A stretch of 64,000 nt of DNA from Candidatus Woesearchaeota archaeon (lineage in GTDB: Archaea > Nanobdellota > Nanobdellia > Woesearchaeales > GW2011-AR9): NCBI GenBank assembly GCA_018696595.1, contig JABHQW010000008.1, positions 268,522 through 332,521 of the forward strand, read 5' to 3'. This document shows positions 10,101-62,138 of this stretch, in pieces. The stretch's first letter is position 1; the number at the start of each line of letters is the position of its first letter. The notes beneath the pieces are model-generated. The model was not told the DNA's origin. It was given only the letters and a program-made list of their open reading frames with translations, and searched no databases. The translations under genes were made by a program, and so were the position numbers.

Positions 10101-11993
10101 CTATTTAACCCCATACTTATTCATAATCTTTTTATAAGTTTTGAAATCTTTTGATTTTGAAAATGCGTTAATTTCTTTTTTAGGCAATTTTCCAAGTAAA
10201 CCATCAATTTTTCTTAATGCCGGTTTAAGATCTTTATCCACATCAACATTAGATTTAACTTTAACCCTAATACGTTTAATCTCTTTAACAATTCTCGTTT
10301 TGATTTTAACAACTTGTACAATTTTTGTTTTTATTTTAATAATTGGTAATTTCTCATCAATAATTAAATGCAACTTGTGTAGTTCATCTCTTAACTTATT
10401 AGCATCATTAACTCTTTTAATTTTTTCTTTAACAACTTTATTTAAGTTTTTAAGTTGTTTATCCCTATCAGATAATTTTTCTGAAATGGCCTTATAATTA
10501 GCTTTAGTCTTCTCTTGTTTATCCTCTAGCTTTATTTCTTCCTCTCTTAATTTTCGAAGAATGTTCTCGTTATTAGCTGTTTTATTTGATATGTTAGATT
10601 TTCTTTTACGAAGAGTTTTAGCCTTTTCTAATAATTTCAATCTATTAGCAGATAACTCTTTCTTTTTAGTTTCCATTTCATTATCGATTTCAGATTTCCT
10701 TTTCTCTAATTGTTTGGAAGCGCTTCCTTTTTTACGATTAAGAACAACAATTTCTTTATCTAAATCAGCAATCTTTAATCCTGCCTGTTTGTTAGCCCGT
10801 GCTTGTTTAAGTTTAAGCCTTTTCTTTTCATTTTCAAGATTATTTTTTAATTGTACTTTTTTTCTCGTCAAATCGACACTAATTTTTTGTTGTTTAATTT
10901 TTTCTAAAGCAATTTCTTTTTCTACATTTTTGATTTTCTTCCAAGTGTTAGATTTAACTTCATCTTCTAATCGGGCAATATAATTATCTAAACGATCATA
11001 AACTGGTTTCTTTAAGAGTGATTGTTTAATTTTTCTTTCTAATTGGATTTTTTGGACTATTTTTCTTAATAACTGTTCTTCTTCAACTAGACTTTGATGT
11101 TTTCTTTTTTCAGAAGAAATTTGATTGTTAGTAGCAGTTAATGATTTCTTATTTTTATTTAACTTAGTCATAGCAAAGTTTTGTTTTTGGTTAAGAGCTT
11201 TAATTCTTTTACCCACTTCTTCTTTTTTCAAAGCTTGTTTTCGATAAGCTTCTTGTGTTCTCGTTAAATCTTTGGAAATATCTTCAATTTGTTTATTTAA
11301 ATCTAAATGTTTCTTAACAATTTTCTGTTGTTTTTCATTTTGAACTTTACTTTCCTTTCTTACTGATAATAATAATTGTCTTTTTACAGCTGCTAATGAA
11401 GTTTCAATATTATCAAGTAAAGTTTGGTGTTCTTTTTTCTCTTTTAAAACTTTAATTTGTAACTGCTCAATATTTCTCTTCTTAGCTAAAAATTCTTTTT
11501 GTGTAGAAAAAGAGTTATCTTGGAACGAACGTAATTGTCTTTTTTTAAGCAACATTTCTTTCTCTATGTTTTTAAGACTAGTTTTAGCTTTAGATTTTTC
11601 AGCTTTAAAACTATCAATCACTGCTGGCATATCTCCAGAAACCGCTTTAACCGCAGTTAACATCTTTTCAATTTTGTTTAATTTTATTTTTCCTGTTTTT
11701 AATTCATTCTCTTTTTCTTGAATGTCAAGCAAAATCATTTTCGTTTTTGCTTCATTAATACTTTTCCTTTGTAATAATTCTTTTTCCAAATCATTCATTT
11801 CTCTTTTAATTTGGTTTAAAGCTTGGCTATCTCTATTCAGTAAACTTAAAGAGGCTGTTCTTCTTCTTTCCCATGACTTTAATTTATTACTGAAGCTTTT
11901 CTTTTCTTTTTCTAAAACTTTAATTTTCCTTCCAGATTCAGAAAGAATTTTGTTAATCTCCTTCTCCAAATTGAGCAATAATTCTGGCATCAC
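10101..11993 (-). CDS. Long coiled-coil protein (630 aa, K/E/L/Q-rich) with no globular enzymatic domain recognised
   Basis: Continuous heptad-like composition. Ends 5 nt upstream of the KaiC-like gene start, so the two are operonic. Confidence 0.55.
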   Translation of the reverse strand: MMPELLLNLEKEINKILSESGRKIKVLEKEKKSFSNKLKSWERRRTASLSLLNRDSQALNQIKREMNDLEKELLQRKSINEAKTKMILLDIQEKENELKTGKIKLNKIEKMLTAVKAVSGDMPAVIDSFKAEKSKAKTSLKNIEKEMLLKKRQLRSFQDNSFSTQKEFLAKKRNIEQLQIKVLKEKKEHQTLLDNIETSLAAVKRQLLLSVRKESKVQNEKQQKIVKKHLDLNKQIEDISKDLTRTQEAYRKQALKKEEVGKRIKALNQKQNFAMTKLNKNKKSLTATNNQISSEKRKHQSLVEEEQLLRKIVQKIQLERKIKQSLLKKPVYDRLDNYIARLEDEVKSNTWKKIKNVEKEIALEKIKQQKISVDLTRKKVQLKNNLENEKKRLKLKQARANKQAGLKIADLDKEIVVLNRKKGSASKQLEKRKSEIDNEMETKKKELSANRLKLLEKAKTLRKRKSNISNKTANNENILRKLREEEIKLEDKQEKTKANYKAISEKLSDRDKQLKNLNKVVKEKIKRVNDANKLRDELHKLHLIIDEKLPIIKIKTKIVQVVKIKTRIVKEIKRIRVKVKSNVDVDKDLKPALRKIDGLLGKLPKKEINAFSKSKDFKTYKKIMNKYGVK

Positions 11994-14399: not shown

Positions 14400-15491
14400 T
14401 CAAAATTCTAGGAGTATTTTTTTATTCTTCAAATCAATCCCTTTGATCTTCTTAACTTTTTTCAACTCGCTTTCAATCTCTTTCCAATCTTTACCTTCTT
14501 TTCTTGCAGATTTAACAAAATCAATAATCTTTTGTAAGGGTTGGTAGTTCTCATAAACAGTCTCTCCCTTTTGGGTATTTAATACAATCTTATCTTCTTG
14601 TTTCTTAATCGATTTTTTCTGGTTAGAAATTATTCCTTTAGCCGAAATTATTCTTTGTTCATAGGGAGATATAATCTCAAACGGATTAAGAATATTGATT
14701 GCTTCATTATACGTTTCAGTTTTCTTTACTACTTTCTCCTCATTAGTTAATTCAAAAGGGGTTATCTGATTTTCATAAATAAATCCAGAAGGTTTCTCAA
14801 TAACTTTCAATAATGTTTTAATCCCTTTAATAATTTCTTTAATCTCTTTTTCAGTAACATCATTTTGTAATTTGTCTTTATCAACATCAGCTAATCTACA
14901 AATCTCTTCTGCATATAATCCACCAAATCCCACTTCTGTAGCAATTGAAGTAGCCAAATTCTTTTTATCACTCTTTTTCAAAACAGTAGTTAACTCTTTC
15001 TCATTCAACTTTTTCCAATCAATTCCTGGCGTAGGAAAAACATACTTCTCTTTCACTCTGATATTACGATCTTTCCATTTCTTTTGTTCAAGGGCAGCAA
15101 TAATCATATCTTTAGAGTCAGTCAAAATCAAATTTCCACGAGAGAACAATTCAATAATTAGATAATACTTCTCCTTTTTTTCAATTTCAAAAACAATAAT
15201 TCTTTCAGCGCCTTTTTGTTCAATCTTTCTAATAGAAGCGTTATCCAAATATTTCCTTAATTGCATACAGAATGAAGATGGTTTTAGGGGGGTATCTTTC
15301 CGCGAAGTCAAACAAAGAAATTTTCCAGGAACAATTTTCAATAATTGTTTGCCTTCGCCTTTAGCATGTAACTGAAATAATAGCTCCATCTTTTCCTGGT
15401 GGTAAACTTGCGATATTCTTCCATCTACTAAGAACTGTAATTCGTTAATAATCGCTGCTAGTTCAAGTGAAGCTAATCCTTTTTTGTTCAT
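14400..15491 (-). CDS. NFACT-N domain protein (short Rqc2/NEMF/FbpA-like)
   Basis: LASLELAAIINELQFLVDGRISQVYHQ...LFQLHAKG matches the NFACT-N start. At 363 aa it is far shorter than full-length archaeal homologs. Confidence 0.5.
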   Translation of the reverse strand: MNKKGLASLELAAIINELQFLVDGRISQVYHQEKMELLFQLHAKGEGKQLLKIVPGKFLCLTSRKDTPLKPSSFCMQLRKYLDNASIRKIEQKGAERIIVFEIEKKEKYYLIIELFSRGNLILTDSKDMIIAALEQKKWKDRNIRVKEKYVFPTPGIDWKKLNEKELTTVLKKSDKKNLATSIATEVGFGGLYAEEICRLADVDKDKLQNDVTEKEIKEIIKGIKTLLKVIEKPSGFIYENQITPFELTNEEKVVKKTETYNEAINILNPFEIISPYEQRIISAKGIISNQKKSIKKQEDKIVLNTQKGETVYENYQPLQKIIDFVKSARKEGKDWKEIESELKKVKKIKGIDLKNKKILLEF

Positions 15492-15722: not shown

Positions 15723-18344
15723 CTATTCAATCTCAAATCGAAGTATAGCAGCAATGCCGCCTAAATCTCTAAGTTGTGCCCCTTCTCTAGTTTCTGTAGA
15801 AATAATCCTAACTTCTGCACCACCTGCTTGTGCCTTCTCTTCCAAATCAAAAATCTTATTTTCAGGAATACTCTCTGAAATTAGTAAAATGTCAACTGCG
15901 GCCATTTCTAAAGCTTTCAATGTTTCTTTCTCCCCATAAGTTGCTTTTTTGGGCGTATCTCTAAGAGTGCCTAAGAATTGTTGCATAATTTTTTTCTCGT
16001 GAGCAATTTCTTCTTCTGATAAAAGGTCTTCAGATTTTTCTAATAATTCTTGCAATCCAAAATCTCCGGTATACGATAAATCTTTAGTACCAATAATTTT
16101 TTTCTTTACATCTCCAGTAATATAATCTTTATTCATAAAATCGTTAATCGTAACACCGGGGCCACCAATAATAATGCCTTTCAAATCTTTTCCAAGAGGT
16201 AAGAATTGATCTTTCATATATTCTGCAATTTTTTTAAAATGATCTTTAGCAGCACCTTCTCTTAGACGAGCGAATCTTTGAGCAGAATTATGAACTATTA
16301 ATCCATTTGCTATGAAGTTTTGATTGCCAACAGAAATGTCAATCATTTCAGTTTCTTCATTTCTTTTTTCAATATTAGCAATCTTAACCGGCAAAATGGG
16401 GCTATTATAAACTTCTTCTAATTGTGTATATAATTTCTTATCTTTAACACAAGACAAGATAGAACTCTTAAATGTTTGTTTACTCATCATTCTCTCATTT
16501 CTAAAGAAGTTTGTTACTTTTGGAAATTGGTTTGTGTTGTAACCAGCGTTTTCAATTATCTTTCTGATTTTCGAACCAGAAGCAATAATTTGTCTGACAT
16601 TACTCTTATTTGATCTTAAATCAATACTCTTTTCTAATTTTTGTGATTTTTTATTACAAGTAAATCCAATTTGTTCTTTAAATAATTCTAAAGATTTCTT
16701 TTCTGTAATGTCAATTGTAAAGCGAGGATTATCACTTAGTGGATTTCTTCTATTGTCATATTCATGTAAAGAAGAAATGATTCCAAATCTTAACAAAGCC
16801 ATTTGTATTTGTTGTGCCAATATTTTGTTATTTATTCCAAATGCAGCCTGTTTTCTTTGAGAAACATAACCTTCTGCATCAAAAAATCCTTTCACAAAAC
16901 TTGCAAGAATTTTATTTGGAGAATTTAATATTTTTTCGGGAATTAAAGAATCTCTTGCTTTTTTTATTTCTGGAAATTCTGTTTGAATTAATCTAACTAA
17001 TGGTCTACTTGTAAATCTTAACTGGTGGTAATTCTTACTTTCTCTAAATTTATAACTACAATTCAGATCAAAGTGTTGATCAAACAATTCTTTATAATGT
17101 AAAGCAAGATCTTTACTTTGTTCAAAGAAAGTAATTCTATCTTTTTCTATACAACCATCACCCATTAGATAACCTAAAAATTGAGCGAGATTTGCTTCAA
17201 GAAGAACCGGCAATTTGATGTTTTTGTATAGTTCAGGAGTAGTATAGTTATTTAGGAAATCATAAAAATCAATTTCTAAGGCCGCACAAAGCTTTTGCAA
17301 AGGAATTCTTCCAATATTTCTTTTTCCTTTTTCGTAAGTTGATATTGCTGTTTGGGTAAGCCCAGTAAGTTTTGCAACATCTCTCTGAAATAAACTTTTT
17401 TCTTCTCGTTTTCTCTTGATTTGGTTTTGTCCTTCTTTATTTATTTTGAAAGAATTATAATATTGAACTGCTTTGATGGTTTGAAGTTTACCTTCTACTT
17501 CTATTTTTTCAGGCATAATTAGAAAATCTCCTTCTTGAAGTTCTTCAGCGGCTTTTTCTTTGATTCCATTCTCAGTTTTCACAAAGAAAATATGGTCTTT
17601 AGAAGATTCTACTTGTAGTCTTGGATATTTTGTTGTGATCTTGTAAACTTCATGTTTTTTGGCATTCCATTTATCTGTAATTGGTGAATCTTTAATTGAG
17701 TGACTTTCCATAACCATACTCTTGAGCACAATTGGGTTATGGGAATTTTCAATTTTTAAGATGTCTCCCTGAGTGGATTGAATTAATGTTCCTTTCATAC
17801 AACATTGTCCACCTGCTTTAGTTTTTCCAGGAACTTCCGAATGTGTTTTTTGCATTGGGACAATAGATTTTCCTTTCAACAGAGCAATGGTTGCATCCCT
17901 TCTATCCATAACAACAAGACCATAAACTTCTTTGTTAACCATCATTTCTTCTAATAAATCAGTTACAAAGTTTTTATCACAACGATAAATACGTGTGTTT
18001 AATTGGATTGGTGGTTCAATACTCCAAACTCGAACATCTTGTTTACCTTCTCCTGCGGCAACGTTTCCAGAAAAAACCGCAAAACCATTTTCTGGTGTGT
18101 TACCAATAGTTCTTAAATGTTGAATCATTTTTTCCAAAGCATTCTGGACATTCTTTCTAGTAGCAGCAGATTTAATGTTTGAAGCGGTTCCTTGCTCTTC
18201 TGCTAGATGTTGAATAATTTTTGTCATATCATAACCAGAAGGGATGTAAACTGTAACAAACTCTGTATGTGGAGCCTTATGGCTACGTAACTCACTTACT
18301 ATTTTTTTCAGTTTCAGTTTCTCTTGTGCGGTTATCGCTGCCAT
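15723..18344 (-). CDS. prf1: Peptide chain release factor aRF1 (eRF1 homolog) interrupted by an intein
   Basis: Exteins together are about 367 aa, with NIKS-like region and KTKAGGQ|SAQRFARLRE. The C-terminus GGIAAILRFEIE is eRF1-like. Confidence 0.9.
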   Translation of the reverse strand: MAAITAQEKLKLKKIVSELRSHKAPHTEFVTVYIPSGYDMTKIIQHLAEEQGTASNIKSAATRKNVQNALEKMIQHLRTIGNTPENGFAVFSGNVAAGEGKQDVRVWSIEPPIQLNTRIYRCDKNFVTDLLEEMMVNKEVYGLVVMDRRDATIALLKGKSIVPMQKTHSEVPGKTKAGGQCCMKGTLIQSTQGDILKIENSHNPIVLKSMVMESHSIKDSPITDKWNAKKHEVYKITTKYPRLQVESSKDHIFFVKTENGIKEKAAEELQEGDFLIMPEKIEVEGKLQTIKAVQYYNSFKINKEGQNQIKRKREEKSLFQRDVAKLTGLTQTAISTYEKGKRNIGRIPLQKLCAALEIDFYDFLNNYTTPELYKNIKLPVLLEANLAQFLGYLMGDGCIEKDRITFFEQSKDLALHYKELFDQHFDLNCSYKFRESKNYHQLRFTSRPLVRLIQTEFPEIKKARDSLIPEKILNSPNKILASFVKGFFDAEGYVSQRKQAAFGINNKILAQQIQMALLRFGIISSLHEYDNRRNPLSDNPRFTIDITEKKSLELFKEQIGFTCNKKSQKLEKSIDLRSNKSNVRQIIASGSKIRKIIENAGYNTNQFPKVTNFFRNERMMSKQTFKSSILSCVKDKKLYTQLEEVYNSPILPVKIANIEKRNEETEMIDISVGNQNFIANGLIVHNSAQRFARLREGAAKDHFKKIAEYMKDQFLPLGKDLKGIIIGGPGVTINDFMNKDYITGDVKKKIIGTKDLSYTGDFGLQELLEKSEDLLSEEEIAHEKKIMQQFLGTLRDTPKKATYGEKETLKALEMAAVDILLISESIPENKIFDLEEKAQAGGAEVRIISTETREGAQLRDLGGIAAILRFEIE
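16287..17804 (-). mobile_element. Intein (506 aa) inserted between GGQ and S of aRF1. Contains a LAGLIDADG homing endonuclease and an XRE-type HTH.
   Basis: Starts with Cys directly after GGQ. Ends ...NQNFIANGLIVHN followed by the Ser +1 residue. LAGLIDADG motifs LGYLMGDG and GFFDAEG. HTH LFQRDVAKLTGLTQTAISTYEKG. Confidence 0.85.
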
Positions 18345-47533: not shown

Positions 47534-48589
47534 CTACCACTCTAATTTGTAACGTAGAATTGCGGCAATTCCCCCTAGGCCGTCTAACTTTTGCCCGGTT
47601 TCTTGTTTAGAAGAAAGAATGTTAATTTGTCCTTTTAGTACATCAATCTGTTTCATCAACTTGTCTAGTTCTATGTAATGGCCTTCTTCTCTCTTTTGTT
47701 GAATGAAATCATCTGTTAACAATAATTTACTAACCGCTCCTGCATCAATTGCTTTTTTTACTTCTCCCCAAGCATATACTGCCAGTCCATTTTTGTTGAT
47801 TTCGCTTAACAGTTCATCCATTAATATTTTTTCTGTTCTTGCCCTAGAAGATTGTAATGTTTTTTCTAATTCTTTACTTCCTAACACTTCGTCAATAGAT
47901 CTTTCACTAACATCAGAACAATTAACCAAAACTATTTTCTTTTTTACTTCTGGATCAGAAATTTTCTTTAACAAATTTTCTTTCCAAAAAGCAGGAGAGG
48001 CAAGAATTATTTTTTCTGGCAAATGCCTTTCATTGTAAGTATTAATTGTTTTAATAATTTCTTGTTGAAAATCTGTTTTGATTTCTACGGTCTTGGCTTT
48101 TTTAGGAACGTCACCTTTTATTTTTAGAATAACTTGGTAGCCAAACTTTTTAGTTAATGCAAACAATGATTCCTCCCGGTCAAAAATTATAATTAAGAAA
48201 TTATGTTTCTTTTGAGCAGATTCTTCCAACTTTTGTTTTTGAAATTCCATCCAGCCAACTTTTTCTAAAACAAATTCGCTACCTTCCTCTAAAGGAATTG
48301 CTTGATAACTATCTTTTGGAACTTCCTCTGGCCCTTCCTTAATTTTACCGTTAACTCTTAAAATGTCTCCCGACTGATCAAAATCTATGGTTTCTGCTTC
48401 GATTTTTAAGAAATAAGTTTTTTTAACAGTTTTAGCATTATCTCCATCACCAATTTTAATTTTTCTAGTAGTTTTCCCTTTAACAAAATCTCCCGGATCA
48501 ATCAAATGGCTTAGGTACCATAAGTCTTCAGGATCTGTTATTCTTAGTTTTACGTCTCCTTTCTTAAAATCTGCATGGATTATGTTCAT
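47534..48589 (-). CDS. pelA: Pelota (Dom34 homolog), mRNA surveillance factor
   Basis: Pelota N-domain. C-terminal eRF1-like domain ending GGIAAILRYKLEW. Confidence 0.85.
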   Translation of the reverse strand: MNIIHADFKKGDVKLRITDPEDLWYLSHLIDPGDFVKGKTTRKIKIGDGDNAKTVKKTYFLKIEAETIDFDQSGDILRVNGKIKEGPEEVPKDSYQAIPLEEGSEFVLEKVGWMEFQKQKLEESAQKKHNFLIIIFDREESLFALTKKFGYQVILKIKGDVPKKAKTVEIKTDFQQEIIKTINTYNERHLPEKIILASPAFWKENLLKKISDPEVKKKIVLVNCSDVSERSIDEVLGSKELEKTLQSSRARTEKILMDELLSEINKNGLAVYAWGEVKKAIDAGAVSKLLLTDDFIQQKREEGHYIELDKLMKQIDVLKGQINILSSKQETGQKLDGLGGIAAILRYKLEW

Positions 48590-49956: not shown

Positions 49957-51921
49957 ATGATGGGAAAAGCAGCGGCGATAGGTGGAGCATTAAAGAGCGC
50001 AGGGTCTAAAGTTACTCCTGGATTAACAGGTGCTGGTGCCGGTGCAACAGCTGTAGCAACACAAAGTGCAGCTAAGTCTTTCAGAAACAAAGGTTTCCCA
50101 TTGTTTTTAGCAGCAGTAATTATTTTTATCATTTCACAGGTTCTTGGTCTTTCCGACTTTTATGGTTATGCTTCAGTATTGTTTATGGTCTATTGTGCAT
50201 ATGCTGTTTTTGAAGGACGGGGCGCGTACATCGTAACTATTTTTTGTGTTTGGTATTTCTTATTAGGGAGAGCTAGCTTAGAAAGTGTTTTATACTATGT
50301 TGTGCCAATTGCTTTAATTGGTTCAATAATTCACGGGTTATTGGGAAAATTTAAAAGCAAAGATACTTTTGCTCATGGTTTTACTGAAGAGATTCTTTAC
50401 GGTCTTGGCGCAATATTAATTTTCTTTCTGGATATTGGTCTGGTTGAAATGGTCTCTCAAGGAGTCGTAAATTTACCTTACATTCTTACTGAAATCTTAA
50501 GGTTAATTCCTTTGTGGGGGTATGTGGGTTTGTTTGTGATGATTCAAGACGAAGAGAAAGGAGAAAAAAGTTTCTTTATTACAGTCGCAAAGTGGCTTGG
50601 GATTGCATACCTCGTTTCTATTATTATCTTCGCTTCTAGTATTGCTTCAGGGGCTGAAGGGGAAGAATTACTTCCAGGTATAGAACAATTTATTGAGGCA
50701 AAGGAAACTGCTCAAGGTAAATTTGCGAAGACAGAGAACCCTGCTTATTCTAACCTTAAATGTGTGGTCCAAGGAAGATTTAACGATCTGCCGGTTTGTA
50801 TAAAAGATCGTCAAGATGATTCTAAAAGAAAAGTGGCTTGTGAAGCAGAAGGTTTCCCAGAAGGAACTACTAGTTTTAATGAATGTACTGCCGAGTTAAA
50901 AGAACTTGATAATAAGAATATCAATGTTGTTGGTTTTAACGATAAAACAATTAAAGAACCAATTACTGCAGAATTAATTCCTAAAGAGGCAAAGAAGTAC
51001 GATTTACTTCACGAGAAAGGACAAGCAATTAAAATTCCAATAGATTTGGAAATAAAGAATCCTCGTTTAGATCCATTTGAAGTTTATGTTTCATGTAACA
51101 TTACCACCCAGAGAAGGAAAACTTCTATTGGCGAAGCAGAAATTGTGGGCTTTGAAAATAAGGGGGAAAATAATGAGAAAGGAAGCAAATGGAAACATTT
51201 TACCATTTATAAAACAGAATCATCTATTCCTTTAATTTGTCAACCTACTAAGTTAGATTACGAATTAAATGAAGAAACGAGAATATTTAATGGTTCTTAT
51301 AATGTTGTTTTTTATGTTGAATTTAAAGGAGTAAACACAACTTCTAGATTAGAAAGAAGTTTTTTCAATGACTTAAAGATTTACGATGAAATTAATAAAA
51401 TTAAAGACTTAACATCTGAACAAGAACAAGAATTAAGGGGAAAAGCCAGAAAAGATTTTGAAGAAGAGATGAAAGAATTCCTTAACCTTAAATATTCTTC
51501 AATAGAAAGTCGTCATTCTACTGGTCCTGAAGATTTCGCTAGAATCGATTTTTCTTTTGGTCCTTCAGAAGGAGAACCGATTATTGAAACTTCAGATTCC
51601 ATTTCTTTTGAAGCAGATGTGGATAATTTAGGTAATGGAAAAATAACAAACATCAATAGTTATAATTTTATTGGTTTTAATGGGGTGACTTTTTCTGGTT
51701 CTGGTTGTAGTCTAAGTGGATCTTTAAATGTCCCTCAGAAATTTATGAAATCTTCAGGAATCCCCATACATCTCTGTTGGGTTGACAATCTTCCTGAAGA
51801 AATGGCTAACCCTGCTTTGGGAGACGAAACAGTTGAATTCCGAGCAGAATTGGAGTACGATTACTTAATTGAAAGAGAAGTGGGAATAACTGCGGGAGTG
51901 ATTGATGATAAAAGCAAATAA
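49957..51921 (+). CDS. Large membrane protein with about 7 N-terminal TM helices and a 450-aa Cys-containing extracellular domain
   Basis: Hydropathy profile. No known motifs. Co-oriented with, and 49 nt downstream of, the pilin-like gene. Confidence 0.55.
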   Translation: MMGKAAAIGGALKSAGSKVTPGLTGAGAGATAVATQSAAKSFRNKGFPLFLAAVIIFIISQVLGLSDFYGYASVLFMVYCAYAVFEGRGAYIVTIFCVWYFLLGRASLESVLYYVVPIALIGSIIHGLLGKFKSKDTFAHGFTEEILYGLGAILIFFLDIGLVEMVSQGVVNLPYILTEILRLIPLWGYVGLFVMIQDEEKGEKSFFITVAKWLGIAYLVSIIIFASSIASGAEGEELLPGIEQFIEAKETAQGKFAKTENPAYSNLKCVVQGRFNDLPVCIKDRQDDSKRKVACEAEGFPEGTTSFNECTAELKELDNKNINVVGFNDKTIKEPITAELIPKEAKKYDLLHEKGQAIKIPIDLEIKNPRLDPFEVYVSCNITTQRRKTSIGEAEIVGFENKGENNEKGSKWKHFTIYKTESSIPLICQPTKLDYELNEETRIFNGSYNVVFYVEFKGVNTTSRLERSFFNDLKIYDEINKIKDLTSEQEQELRGKARKDFEEEMKEFLNLKYSSIESRHSTGPEDFARIDFSFGPSEGEPIIETSDSISFEADVDNLGNGKITNINSYNFIGFNGVTFSGSGCSLSGSLNVPQKFMKSSGIPIHLCWVDNLPEEMANPALGDETVEFRAELEYDYLIEREVGITAGVIDDKSK

Positions 51922-59817: not shown

Positions 59818-60414
59818 ATGAAATTTTTAACATTCGTAGATTTACATGAAGATAAAAAATATCTGAAAGAACTAATTAAACGAGCTTCGCAAGATGATAT
59901 AGACTTTGTCGTTTGTGCTGGTGATATAACTCTATTTGGTAGGGGCTTACGTTATATTCTCAAACAATTAAATAATCTTAATAAGAAAATATATATTATT
60001 CCCGGAAATCATGAAAGTGATCGAATGTTTAAAGAAGTAATTTCTGATTATCCAAATTGTATCAACTTTAATCGTAAAGTCATTAAGAAAGATGGCTATG
60101 TTTTCTTAGGTTACGGGGGTGGCGGATTTTCTGCTCAAGACCCAGAATTCAGAAAAATATCTCGTGATTGGTACAGCAAGTATCAAGATGATAAAGTTGT
60201 TTTGGTAACTCACGGTCCGCCAGCAAACACAACACTAGATCTCTTAGAAAAAAGGCATGTTGGCAATATGGACTATCGTAAATTTGTGGAGAGAATGAAA
60301 CCTAAATTAATGATTTGTGGTCATTTACATGAGAATGTTGGTATGCAAGACAAGATTGGTAAAACCATTGTTATTCACCCTGGTTGGGAAGGAATGGTAA
60401 TAGAATTAAGTTAA
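59818..60414 (+). CDS. Calcineurin-like metallophosphoesterase
   Basis: DLHED, GDITLFG, GNHES, VTHGPP and GHLHEN metal-binding blocks. Confidence 0.8.
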   Translation: MKFLTFVDLHEDKKYLKELIKRASQDDIDFVVCAGDITLFGRGLRYILKQLNNLNKKIYIIPGNHESDRMFKEVISDYPNCINFNRKVIKKDGYVFLGYGGGGFSAQDPEFRKISRDWYSKYQDDKVVLVTHGPPANTTLDLLEKRHVGNMDYRKFVERMKPKLMICGHLHENVGMQDKIGKTIVIHPGWEGMVIELS

Positions 60415-62138
60415 GCTGCTTTTTGATAAGCAGTAGTTTTCATTGCTTCTTTATATGCTGCTCCCGCTTGGGCATTAGCTTTTTGTAACTGTTCTCCAAA
60501 CTTACTTGCTTCGCCCATATATTTTTTATCCATGCCTAACTTCTTGTGCATCATTGTTCCCATAGAATCGGCTAGATGTTTTGATTGTAATTTATGTAAT
60601 GTTTCGTTTTCATCAATCTTATCTTCTTCTTTTTCAATTAATTCATTCAGTCTTTTAAATGTAAACATTGTTTCTTGTTCAGTTCTTTGGTTTAATGCTG
60701 CAAGATATTTATCCATTCTTTTTTCATCTTCCAATACTCCAGAACTTGCTTGTATTGCTTCTGCTTGGTCTTTCAAAGTTCCTGCAACATCTTGAGTGTA
60801 CATTATAGCAACTAATTTCAGAACAGCAGCAACACCTGCATTTAATGCTTCTTCAGACTGATCTAATGCAGGTAATAACTTAACAAAAGCTTCCATTTTT
60901 CTTTGAGTCATTAAGTTTTGTTCAAGAATTTCTTTTAATTTTTCTTCAAAAGCAAGATCTCCTTTCAATGCTTTAATGTAGTAAGTAAAATATTCATTGA
61001 TACTAGAAGAAGCAGATAAAACCATTCCATGCAATTTTTCACTTCCAGAATTGTCTTCAATACTTTTTTCTAAGGCTCTCTGTTTTTTCTCAACTTTATC
61101 TAATCTATTACTTAATATTTTTTCTCTACTTTTTAATCCTTTACCATATTTACGCTGACTTTTTCCAATCTTAATTACATTTTGTAAGATAGCTCTTAAT
61201 TGTTTAATCTCTAATTCAATGATTTCATTTGCTTTAACAACCTGTTTATGAATTACTTCTAATTCTGCAGAATTTCTTTTTAACATAGAAATTTCCTTCT
61301 TTAATTGAGCAATTAATGCAGGGTCAGCATTATCTCCTTTAGCTTCTTCAGCAATTAACTTATTTCTTTTTTTCCTGATTGCTTTTTTTAATTTTGAAAA
61401 TTCTTTCTTAAAATCTTTTCTTTCTTTCCTTTCTTTTTTCTTAATTCCTTTTAATTCTTTTTTAGCGCGTCTAGCAATTGGAATAAAATCAGCAATTGCT
61501 TTCCTCAACTTTTTAACAAGTTCTTTTTGATGTTCAGAATTTTGTTCTTCATAACTTACTTGATCTTTTAAGTTCTTAGCCAACGCTTCTAATGATTCTT
61601 TAACAAATTCAGCAGTTTTACTATCAATTTGATCAAAATTTCTTAATCCGCGAATCTTATTTTCCAATACTTCTAACTTAGCAACTTCTATTTCTTGTAT
61701 TTTTTCCATCTTAGATTTTTGTTCAACTTCATCTAAGATTGCTCTTGTAGAGTTTTCTAAGTCTGCGGCCATTGCAGCAGTGGTTTGTTCTAACTCTGTG
61801 GTCTTTTCTTCTAACGCTTCAGTATCTCCAGCAACTTTAGCTGCACCTTTGCCTGCTTTCTCTGTTGCACTAGAAACATCATCACCTTTTGGTTTTTTTG
61901 TTACTAACTTTTGGTAAGCTTTTTGTTTTTTCTTATATCCAGCAAAACGCTTATACACTCTCCAAAATGTCGAACCTGCGGATTTTGCTTCTCTTCTTTC
62001 TTTACCGCCTTCTGTTTTACTACGAACAAAAAAAATTAAAATGATCATAACAATAATTACTCCACCTATGGGTAAAGCTTTTGTTCCAAGGTTTGAGAAT
62101 ATATCTCCCAAGTTTGAAAAAACATCTAATATTGCCAT
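60411..62138 (-). CDS. Membrane-anchored coiled-coil protein, 575 aa, hypothetical
   Basis: N-terminal TM GGVIIVMIILIFFV, then a long K/E-rich coiled coil. Confidence 0.5.
   Translation of the reverse strand: MAILDVFSNLGDIFSNLGTKALPIGGVIIVMIILIFFVRSKTEGGKERREAKSAGSTFWRVYKRFAGYKKKQKAYQKLVTKKPKGDDVSSATEKAGKGAAKVAGDTEALEEKTTELEQTTAAMAADLENSTRAILDEVEQKSKMEKIQEIEVAKLEVLENKIRGLRNFDQIDSKTAEFVKESLEALAKNLKDQVSYEEQNSEHQKELVKKLRKAIADFIPIARRAKKELKGIKKKERKERKDFKKEFSKLKKAIRKKRNKLIAEEAKGDNADPALIAQLKKEISMLKRNSAELEVIHKQVVKANEIIELEIKQLRAILQNVIKIGKSQRKYGKGLKSREKILSNRLDKVEKKQRALEKSIEDNSGSEKLHGMVLSASSSINEYFTYYIKALKGDLAFEEKLKEILEQNLMTQRKMEAFVKLLPALDQSEEALNAGVAAVLKLVAIMYTQDVAGTLKDQAEAIQASSGVLEDEKRMDKYLAALNQRTEQETMFTFKRLNELIEKEEDKIDENETLHKLQSKHLADSMGTMMHKKLGMDKKYMGEASKFGEQLQKANAQAGAAYKEAMKTTAYQKAA

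Follow-up and report, generated by a model that had tools for sequence, protein, structure and literature searches.

A predicted bifunctional class 1 intein with a Cro/C1-type domain at the GGQ motif of archaeal release factor 1

Introduction

What is a 506-residue insertion doing inside the catalytic GGQ loop of a release factor? The question is raised by a 64-kb stretch of Candidatus Woesearchaeota DNA (GenBank contig JABHQW010000008.1; hereafter the window, meaning the whole of the 64,000 nucleotides analyzed), in which the gene for archaeal release factor 1 (aRF1) encodes an 873-aa protein whose GGQ motif is parted from the serine that should follow it. An initial annotation had read the insertion as an intein with a LAGLIDADG homing endonuclease and an additional Cro/C1-like helix-turn-helix (HTH) domain. 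We consider it likely, with a probability of roughly 0.8, that the insertion is a bifunctional class 1 intein, a selfish mobile element lodged between the Gln and Ser of the GGQ loop in the aRF1 of a Woesearchaeota/Nanoarchaeota-type (DPANN) archaeon.

Results

Gene structure and insertion site

The aRF1 precursor is encoded by an uninterrupted 873-aa reading frame. It scores 387.8 bits against TIGR03676, the aRF1 equivalog of NCBIfam (cutoff 234.7), and matches eRF1 domains 1, 2 and 3 of Pfam, and the TASNIKS, YRCDKNF (YxCxxxF) and GGQ motifs can be read in its translation. Recomputation returned exactly the borders (16287-17804) and the 506-aa length that had first been annotated for the insertion. 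The parts of the gene are as follows.

15723..18344, minus strand: aRF1 precursor gene (N-extein, intein and C-extein; 873 aa and stop), from the open reading frame (ORF), TIGR03676 and eRF1_1/2/3
17805..18344, minus strand: N-extein, aa 1-180, ending VPGKTKAGGQ, with Gln180 of the catalytic GGQ as the -1 residue
16287..17804, minus strand: intein, 506 aa, precursor aa 181-686, starting CCMKGT and ending NFIANGLIVHN
15723..16286, minus strand: C-extein, aa 687-873 and stop, starting with Ser+1 of GGQ/SAQRFARLRE

The C-extein opens with SAQRFARLREGA. The junctions in the DNA read GCA GGT GGA CAA/TGT TGT ATG on the N side and ATA GTT CAT AAT/TCT GCT CAA on the C side, and the intein is more AT-rich than its exteins (GC content of 29.1% vs 35.4%). 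Neither terminal inverted repeats nor target duplications were found at the intein borders.

Removing the insertion leaves a 367-aa aRF1, and this spliced sequence was used as a search query. The 120 matches listed comprise 116 intein-free aRF1 proteins of 361-372 aa, two intein-free proteins of 405-408 aa and two that hold mini-inteins; GGQ/SA.R is contiguous in all 118 of the intein-free proteins. The best intein-free ortholog among the matches listed, P0121, is 91% identical to the query and likewise exactly 367 aa long. When aligned, the excised product is collinear with intein-free aRF1 and the exteins rejoin, in agreement with the insertion point at GGQ/S proposed initially and well past what coincidence would give. 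The Cys start and the terminal His-Asn followed by Ser, which that proposal had taken as splice junctions, are present in the window and kept in 109/109 full-length homologs.

The exteins have ratios of nonsynonymous to synonymous divergence (dN/dS) of 0.01-0.11. Because they are under such strong purifying selection, the aRF1 gene is presumably functional and splicing is predicted to work. Apart from this gene, no class I release factor was seen in the 64-kb window, where the sole related ORF is a Pelota-like paralog. It is plausible that splicing is obligatory for host viability, a claim on which a second aRF1 copy outside the 64-kb window would bear.

Anatomy of the intein

On the evidence of sequence profiles and a structural model, the insertion is a canonical class 1 intein in which a two-motif LAGLIDADG homing endonuclease is nested. 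The modules can be placed as follows.

17469..17804, minus strand: N-terminal HINT region, intein aa 1-112, with block A Cys1 and block B S68-K-D-H71; beta strands at aa 7-98 in the model
17244..17456, minus strand: Cro/C1 (XRE, Pfam HTH_3) five-helix domain, intein aa 117-187, from Pfam, PDB matches and the model
16656..17213, minus strand: LAGLIDADG homing endonuclease, intein aa 198-383, from LAGLIDADG_3 and Foldseek
17154..17177, minus strand: LAGLIDADG motif 1, LGYLMGDG
16869..16889, minus strand: LAGLIDADG motif 2, GFFDAEG
16401..16655, minus strand: helical module after the nuclease, intein aa 384-468, from helices in the models and conservation
16287..16400, minus strand: C-terminal HINT region, intein aa 469-506, with block F (MIDISV...NFIANG) and block G (LIVHN)

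The Pfam family Intein_splicing is matched at 5e-19 in the precursor and at 1.7e-19 over intein aa 31-506, and TIGR01443 (intein_Cterm) of NCBIfam scores above its cutoff. There are also partial matches to many intein-containing "exception" models of NCBIfam, the best of which in the intein region is IF-2 PRK14845 (7.5e-22). Both LAGLIDADG motifs had been noted at the outset and are indeed present, within two stretches that match LAGLIDADG_3 (1.8e-20). Among the 109 full-length homologs, Cys1, the Ser and His of block B, the terminal His-Asn, Ser+1 and Gln-1 are each kept in every sequence; Cys1, S68, H71, D489, H505 and N506 are also invariant in a separate 56-sequence alignment. The catalytic Asp of motif 1 occurs in 108/109 homologs and the acidic residue of motif 2 in all 109, as Glu in 100 and as Asp in 9. 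Position 2 of the intein, a Cys in the window copy, is not conserved and is mostly Leu in the homologs.

With 55 homologs as input, AlphaFold2 modelled the intein at a pLDDT of 93.9 and a pTM of 0.92. The best solved fold match of this model in Foldseek is the TliVMA intein (7qss; E 3.8e-25, TM 0.75 on the target), followed by PI-PfuI (1dq3), PI-TkoII (2cw7), PhoVMA, PI-SceI and then free-standing LAGLIDADG enzymes. The nuclease domain matches I-DmoI and I-Tsp061I (TM ~0.7 on the target), and the alpha-beta-beta-alpha-beta-beta-alpha pseudo-dimer of the LAGLIDADG fold is present in the predicted model.

The further Cro/C1-like HTH of the initial annotation was recovered as well. HTH_3 is matched at 38.2-39.3 bits (cutoff 23) over precursor aa 309-362 (1.5e-9), which are intein aa 129-182 (6.7e-10). 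In a phmmer search of the PDB, the module matched C.BclI (2b5a; 3e-8) and C.AhdI (1y7y; 1e-3), both controller proteins of restriction-modification systems, and the model predicts five helices at intein aa 123-187 with pLDDT >90 in a lambda-repressor-like layout. The domain is a clean indel in the family: the related aRF1 intein of P0249 has just four residues where the window intein has aa 113-197, with flanks that are 50-54% identical, and HTH-less inteins at the GGQ site also occur in several other representatives. The HTH_3 domain behaves as a discrete module, putatively an accessory one for DNA binding. What is unusual is that an XRE/HTH_3 domain recognizable by sequence is sited between the N-terminal splicing region and the nuclease. 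Inteins of the same HINT-HTH_3-LAGLIDADG layout (P0328, P0367, P0317 and P0300) also split other archaeal proteins, namely FttA/aCPSF1 (a beta-CASP protein of transcription termination), a metallo-beta-lactamase-fold protein and a DHHA1-domain protein.

Modelled alone, the region that follows the nuclease is helical (pLDDT 84.9), and its family hidden Markov model (HMM) had no matches beyond proteins also recognized by the extein HMMs of aRF1 and short pieces of such inteins. Its position is that of the accessory domain of archaeal inteins as defined by Beyer and Iwai (2022; PMC8966425), which follows the nuclease and precedes the C-terminal HINT part. The module is probably an accessory one for DNA binding.

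Empty sites and the homing target

Intein-free and intein-bearing alleles occur together. The intein-free P0121 and the intein-bearing P0001 come from one Joint Genome Institute (JGI) sample (3300072015), and P0001 is essentially the window protein, with the same gene neighbourhood as in the window. Upstream of aRF1 the two share the order ABC ATPase, ABC-2 permease, AAA_18 kinase, aRF1. For comparison of the insertion site we used the DNA of four loci (L001-L004). The predicted target is as follows.

16270..17819, minus strand: predicted reconstituted homing site, the last 15 nt of the N-extein plus the first 17 nt of the C-extein

Its N half (17805..17819) reads AAAGCAGGTGGACAA and its C half (16270..16286) reads TCTGCTCAAAGATTCGC. 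The joined 32-nt site (-15 to +17) is identical to the uninterrupted site in intein-free alleles L001 and L002. A longer reconstituted site of ~60 bp consists of GTTCCTGGAAAAACTAAAGCAGGTGGACAA and TCTGCTCAAAGATTCGCTCGTCTAAGAGAA, joined in that order at the insertion point. We infer that this reconstituted GGQ-coding site is the target of the endonuclease.

Histories of intein and host gene

Across 109 proteins, the inteins have a history apart from that of their host gene. Pairwise distances of exteins and of inteins have a rank correlation of 0.26, against control values of 0.76 for the N- and C-exteins and 0.62 for the two halves of the intein. In 10 pairs of proteins the inteins are >80% identical and the exteins <60%, the reverse pattern being found in 42 pairs; discordant pairs reach 83-91% intein identity with 46-58% extein identity.

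Synonymous divergence (dS) gives the same picture. The inteins of L073 and L076 differ by a dS of 0.03 and their exteins by 0.55 (~18-fold), and the corresponding values are 0.13 and 0.51 for L018/L019, and 0.36 and 1.30 for L063/L064. For L014/L016 the exteins are saturated (56% amino acid identity) and the inteins are 88% identical. Sliding nucleotide identity rises stepwise at the intein borders.

Purifying selection acts on every module of the intein. In nearly all pairs, dN/dS lies mostly at ~0.05-0.2 for the HINT region, the HTH, the nuclease and the post-nuclease module; by module, the values are mostly 0.03-0.25 for the HTH, 0.05-0.19 for the nuclease in most pairs, and 0.05-0.18 for the post-nuclease module. 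All stages of a homing cycle can be seen among the sequences, from the empty site through the full intein, the HTH-less intein and the mini-intein to a copy with a stop codon. Because the intein and extein histories disagree, intein dS lies below extein dS and all modules are under purifying selection, the family of GGQ inteins in aRF1 appears to be actively homing.

Distribution of the family

A search with the whole precursor returned 625 matches, of which the best 120 (90%-identity clusters, down to 54% identity) were classified. All 120 combine eRF1, intein and LAGLIDADG in a protein of ~870 aa with a GGQ/C junction, and all but one also have HTH_3. When the intein alone was compared with 1.84 billion representatives in an exhaustive search without profiles, 3984 matches were obtained at E<1e-3 and 93 at E<1e-30. 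Among the best 149, sorted by means of family-derived HMMs, roughly 60 are aRF1 proteins with an intein at the GGQ site, at identities down to ~29%.

In a scan of one genome per GTDB species, 209 related stretches were detected and the best 80 were fetched. GGQ/S intein junctions are present in 77 of these 80 loci; of the other three, two have the junction with SQ.RF as the C-flank and the third is interrupted by a stop. The contigs of these 80 loci are labelled Woesearchaeota, Nanoarchaeota or Aenigmatarchaeota, apart from a few evidently mislabelled bins, and the complete genome of archaeon GW2011_AR20 is among the carriers of an aRF1 intein. Several metagenome-assembled genomes with this intein (L006, L008-L010, L016, L017, L028, L031, L033 and L037, among others) are titled "uncultured Methanosarcinales archaeon" or "Candidatus Aminicenantes bacterium"; with their Woesearchaeota-type aRF1 intein, they are probably mislabelled or contaminated bins.

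Reduced forms also occur. P0230 and P0235, which are 504-aa proteins, have mini-inteins of 137 aa at the same GGQ/S site that are devoid of HTH, nuclease and post-nuclease module and keep the family block F/G (MIDISVxNxNFIANGxIVHN). L020 (DUFZ01000037.1, Woesearchaeota UBA10194) has an intein at positions 981-2497 with an in-frame stop ~438 aa into it, and may be a decaying copy or the product of a frameshift or assembly error.

Some archaeal aRF1 proteins have two inteins. Besides the GGQ/S intein, P0289 has a second one at aa 125-364 and P0318 at aa 132-634. At this second site, YLY(M/R)/CDDH, the +1 nucleophile is the conserved Cys of YxCxxxF, the motif of stop-codon recognition, which directly follows the insertion point.

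Automatic annotation at JGI labels the aRF1-intein proteins "eRF1/intein/homing endonuclease". NCBI names are mostly "helix-turn-helix domain-containing protein" or "LAGLIDADG family homing endonuclease". Because the NCBI names describe the HTH or the homing endonuclease, aRF1 can seem to be missing from such genomes.

Other features of the window

A 351-aa ORF without an intein (47534..48589, minus strand) resembles the C-terminal part of aRF1 (family HMM, 1.2e-14) and is most likely the Pelota paralog. In aRF1 of other lineages (P0241, P0244, P0245 and others), the match to the C-extein HMM is broken into two pieces ~30-55 residues apart, and the short (367-aa) aRF1 of the window clade seems to be without an insertion in domain 3. 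The gene directly downstream of aRF1 (14400..15491, minus strand) encodes an NFACT_N protein (7.4e-49) of a ribosome quality control family, so that a release factor and a ribosome-rescue-type factor adjoin in the window; this neighbour is not kept beside aRF1 in the intein-free relatives.

Three large ORFs have no Pfam match at E<=1e-3: 10101..11993 (minus strand, 630 aa), 49957..51921 (plus strand, 654 aa) and 60411..62138 (minus strand, 575 aa). No tRNA genes were found in the whole 64-kb window with ARAGORN, and no further inteins were found in it with the family HMMs.

Discussion

Proposed mechanism

The splicing chemistry, cleavage activity, target site and HTH role set out here are predictions drawn from sequence and from better characterized inteins. 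Once the 873-aa precursor was translated, Cys1 would make an N-S acyl shift at Gln180-Cys181, and Ser+1 would attack the resulting thioester to give a branched ester. Asn506, helped by His505, would then cyclize and release the intein, and an O-N shift would leave a normal peptide bond between the exteins. Splicing is expected to yield a 367-aa aRF1, in which the GGQSAQRFARLR loop is intact, and to set free an endonuclease of 58 kDa. The precursor itself should not be an active release factor, since 506 residues interrupt the loop that enters the peptidyl-transferase centre. The freed LAGLIDADG intein would cut intein-free aRF1 genes at the GGQ-coding sequence, after which repair would copy the intein into the break. 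The HTH_3 domain, and probably the post-nuclease module too, may extend or tune target recognition through extra DNA contacts.

Several points weigh against this account, or narrow it. Splicing and cleavage are predicted from the established intein pathway. Block F of the window intein reads NQNFIANG, with Gln at a position where the canonical intein block consensus has His; the Gln is probably tolerated. The HTH is not needed to find the GGQ site, because HTH-less relatives sit at that same site, and any contribution of the HTH to targeting is conjecture. The post-nuclease module had no significant match among PDB folds (best E 5.7, with faint XRE/HigA-like hints). A scan of viral contigs for a vector returned no relative, and neither a viral nor a plasmid vector was found. 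The best relatives of the window intein itself are ~70% identical, so that a close mobile twin is missing from the data; recent transfer is therefore demonstrated for the family and not for the window copy.

Alternative explanations

The first alternative is that the intein has been domesticated, and that the host uses conditional splicing (e.g., redox control at Cys1) or the freed XRE intein as a transcription regulator. We regard this as improbable. The HTH is under purifying selection along with all other modules and the solved proteins nearest to it are transcription regulators, the intein is found very widely within one clade, the loop into which it is inserted is one whose interruption certainly abolishes function, and the window intein starts with Cys-Cys. 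However, purifying selection is just as expected for an actively homing element, and the second Cys is the variable position noted above. The intein is missing from many close relatives, including the 91%-identical one in the same sample, which disfavours host dependence, and its history is decoupled from that of the host gene. Sister inteins do without the HTH, the mini-inteins have lost the entire nuclease/HTH block, and an operator-like element was not identified.

A more specific form of regulation, in which conditional splicing, promoter binding by the freed XRE intein, or both would couple termination capacity or transcription to the environment, is slightly less probable again. The intein interrupts the sole catalytic loop of a protein that is probably the cell's only class I release factor, so that the amount of active aRF1 would be set by how fast splicing proceeds. 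Such a post-translational switch on termination, if true, is not described for any release factor in the searchable literature. Nothing here favours conditional splicing or a regulator over plain selfish homing.

Second, the element could be a fixed relic that still splices but has an inactive endonuclease and is inherited only vertically. The distance of ~70% identity to the nearest relatives of the window intein would suit a relic, as would the degeneration of some members (the mini-inteins of P0230 and P0235 and the internal stop of L020). Yet both catalytic acidic residues are present in the window copy and in nearly all homologs, the nuclease is constrained (dN/dS ~0.05-0.2), horizontal transfer in the family is clear, and susceptible empty sites coexist with the intein. 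We therefore hold this explanation to be unlikely.

Finally, an assembly chimera, a gene fusion or a transposon insertion that makes aRF1 a pseudogene is an a priori possibility for metagenome-derived sequence and nothing more, and it can be ruled out for practical purposes by the uninterrupted frame, the missing terminal repeats and target duplications, the recurrence of the same junctions in 120/120 listed clusters and 77/80 fetched genome loci, and the strongly constrained exteins.

Significance

With a bifunctional, selfish class 1 intein as the preferred explanation, a class I release factor joins the list of intein hosts, and does so at the universally conserved GGQ catalytic loop. Other archaea have a second intein site, at the YxCxxxF motif. 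The GGQ location agrees with the rule that the DNA targeted by inteins is the most conserved and least mutable. The discordant histories provide quantitative evidence of recent horizontal transfer among DPANN archaea, which have tiny genomes and poorly known routes of gene exchange. Two aspects raise the case above the routine, namely the universally conserved catalytic GGQ site and the placement of a sequence-recognizable Cro/C1 domain. The latter is a natural instance of a repressor-type domain recruited into an intein endonuclease, and supports the acquisition hypothesis of Beyer and Iwai (2022). Potential tools for protein and genome engineering include a mesophile-type intein with a Gln-1/Ser+1 junction and a LAGLIDADG enzyme with modular DNA-binding add-ons.

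We found no description of a natural intein in aRF1 or eRF1 in the searchable literature, and to our knowledge the old InBase allele list has no release-factor entry. The impression in the initial annotation that an intein at this release-factor site was unfamiliar thus holds for publications, in which no paper describing such an intein was found, but not for databases, in which such inteins are not rare and already have a JGI label. The Bodo saltans virus was considered as a candidate and rejected; its inteins lie in polymerases and not in its eRF1. The main text of the survey by Novikova et al. [quoted passage not shown] Release factors are likewise not mentioned in the main text of Green 2018 or of the Anaeramoeba paper. 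The host gene and the insertion site thus appear to be undescribed in the searchable literature, and the mechanism is a familiar one.

Comparison with known systems

Inteins in aIF2/IF-2, as given in the main text of the same survey (PMC4760082), are also found in a core translation protein, but the host and site differ from those in aRF1.

The closest known systems are the VMA-b inteins TliVMA and PhoVMA (7qss, 7qsu and 7qst), which are the best match of the aRF1 intein in both sequence (phmmer, 2e-15) and fold. They share its layout of HINT, LAGLIDADG and accessory module, with the accessory module after the nuclease at the same position, and like the aRF1 intein they sit in a catalytic loop of an essential protein. 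That loop is the P-loop of the V-ATPase rather than the GGQ loop of aRF1, and identity is only ~15%. The VMA-b inteins also have a loop in place of the five-helix XRE/HTH_3 domain; in VMA inteins, an unstructured loop of 28-32 residues links the nuclease to the N-terminal HINT part (Beyer and Iwai, 2022).

PI-TkoII (2cw7) and PI-PfuI (1dq3) are likewise archaeal inteins that bear a homing endonuclease together with extra DNA-binding modules, PI-TkoII having an additional "domain IV" and an HTH-like accessory domain. Their hosts are DNA polymerase and ribonucleotide reductase, and their extra domains are not Pfam HTH_3 by sequence. PI-SceI, the yeast VMA1 intein, offers a functional analogy: its DNA-binding module lies N-terminal of the nuclease and adds contacts beyond the core LAGLIDADG site. 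The fold match with PI-SceI is significant (E 1e-10 to 1e-13), but TM scores of only ~0.4-0.5 show that its domain arrangement differs, and its DNA recognition region is inserted within the HINT fold and is not an XRE domain.

For the HTH itself, C.BclI (2b5a) and C.AhdI (1y7y) share the sequence match and the five-helix layout. They are free-standing dimeric repressors that act on palindromic operators, whereas the HTH of the aRF1 intein is a single embedded copy, which presumably binds a half-site beside the cleavage site for that reason. Accessory domains of archaeal inteins, some of them HTH-like, modulate the cleavage specificity of the endonuclease, and it has been hypothesized that inteins pick up DNA-binding domains from transcription factors, a process mimicked by grafting the 434-repressor domain onto TliVMA (Beyer and Iwai, 2022; PMC8966425). 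That chimera is an artificial analogue of the HTH-bearing intein in aRF1.

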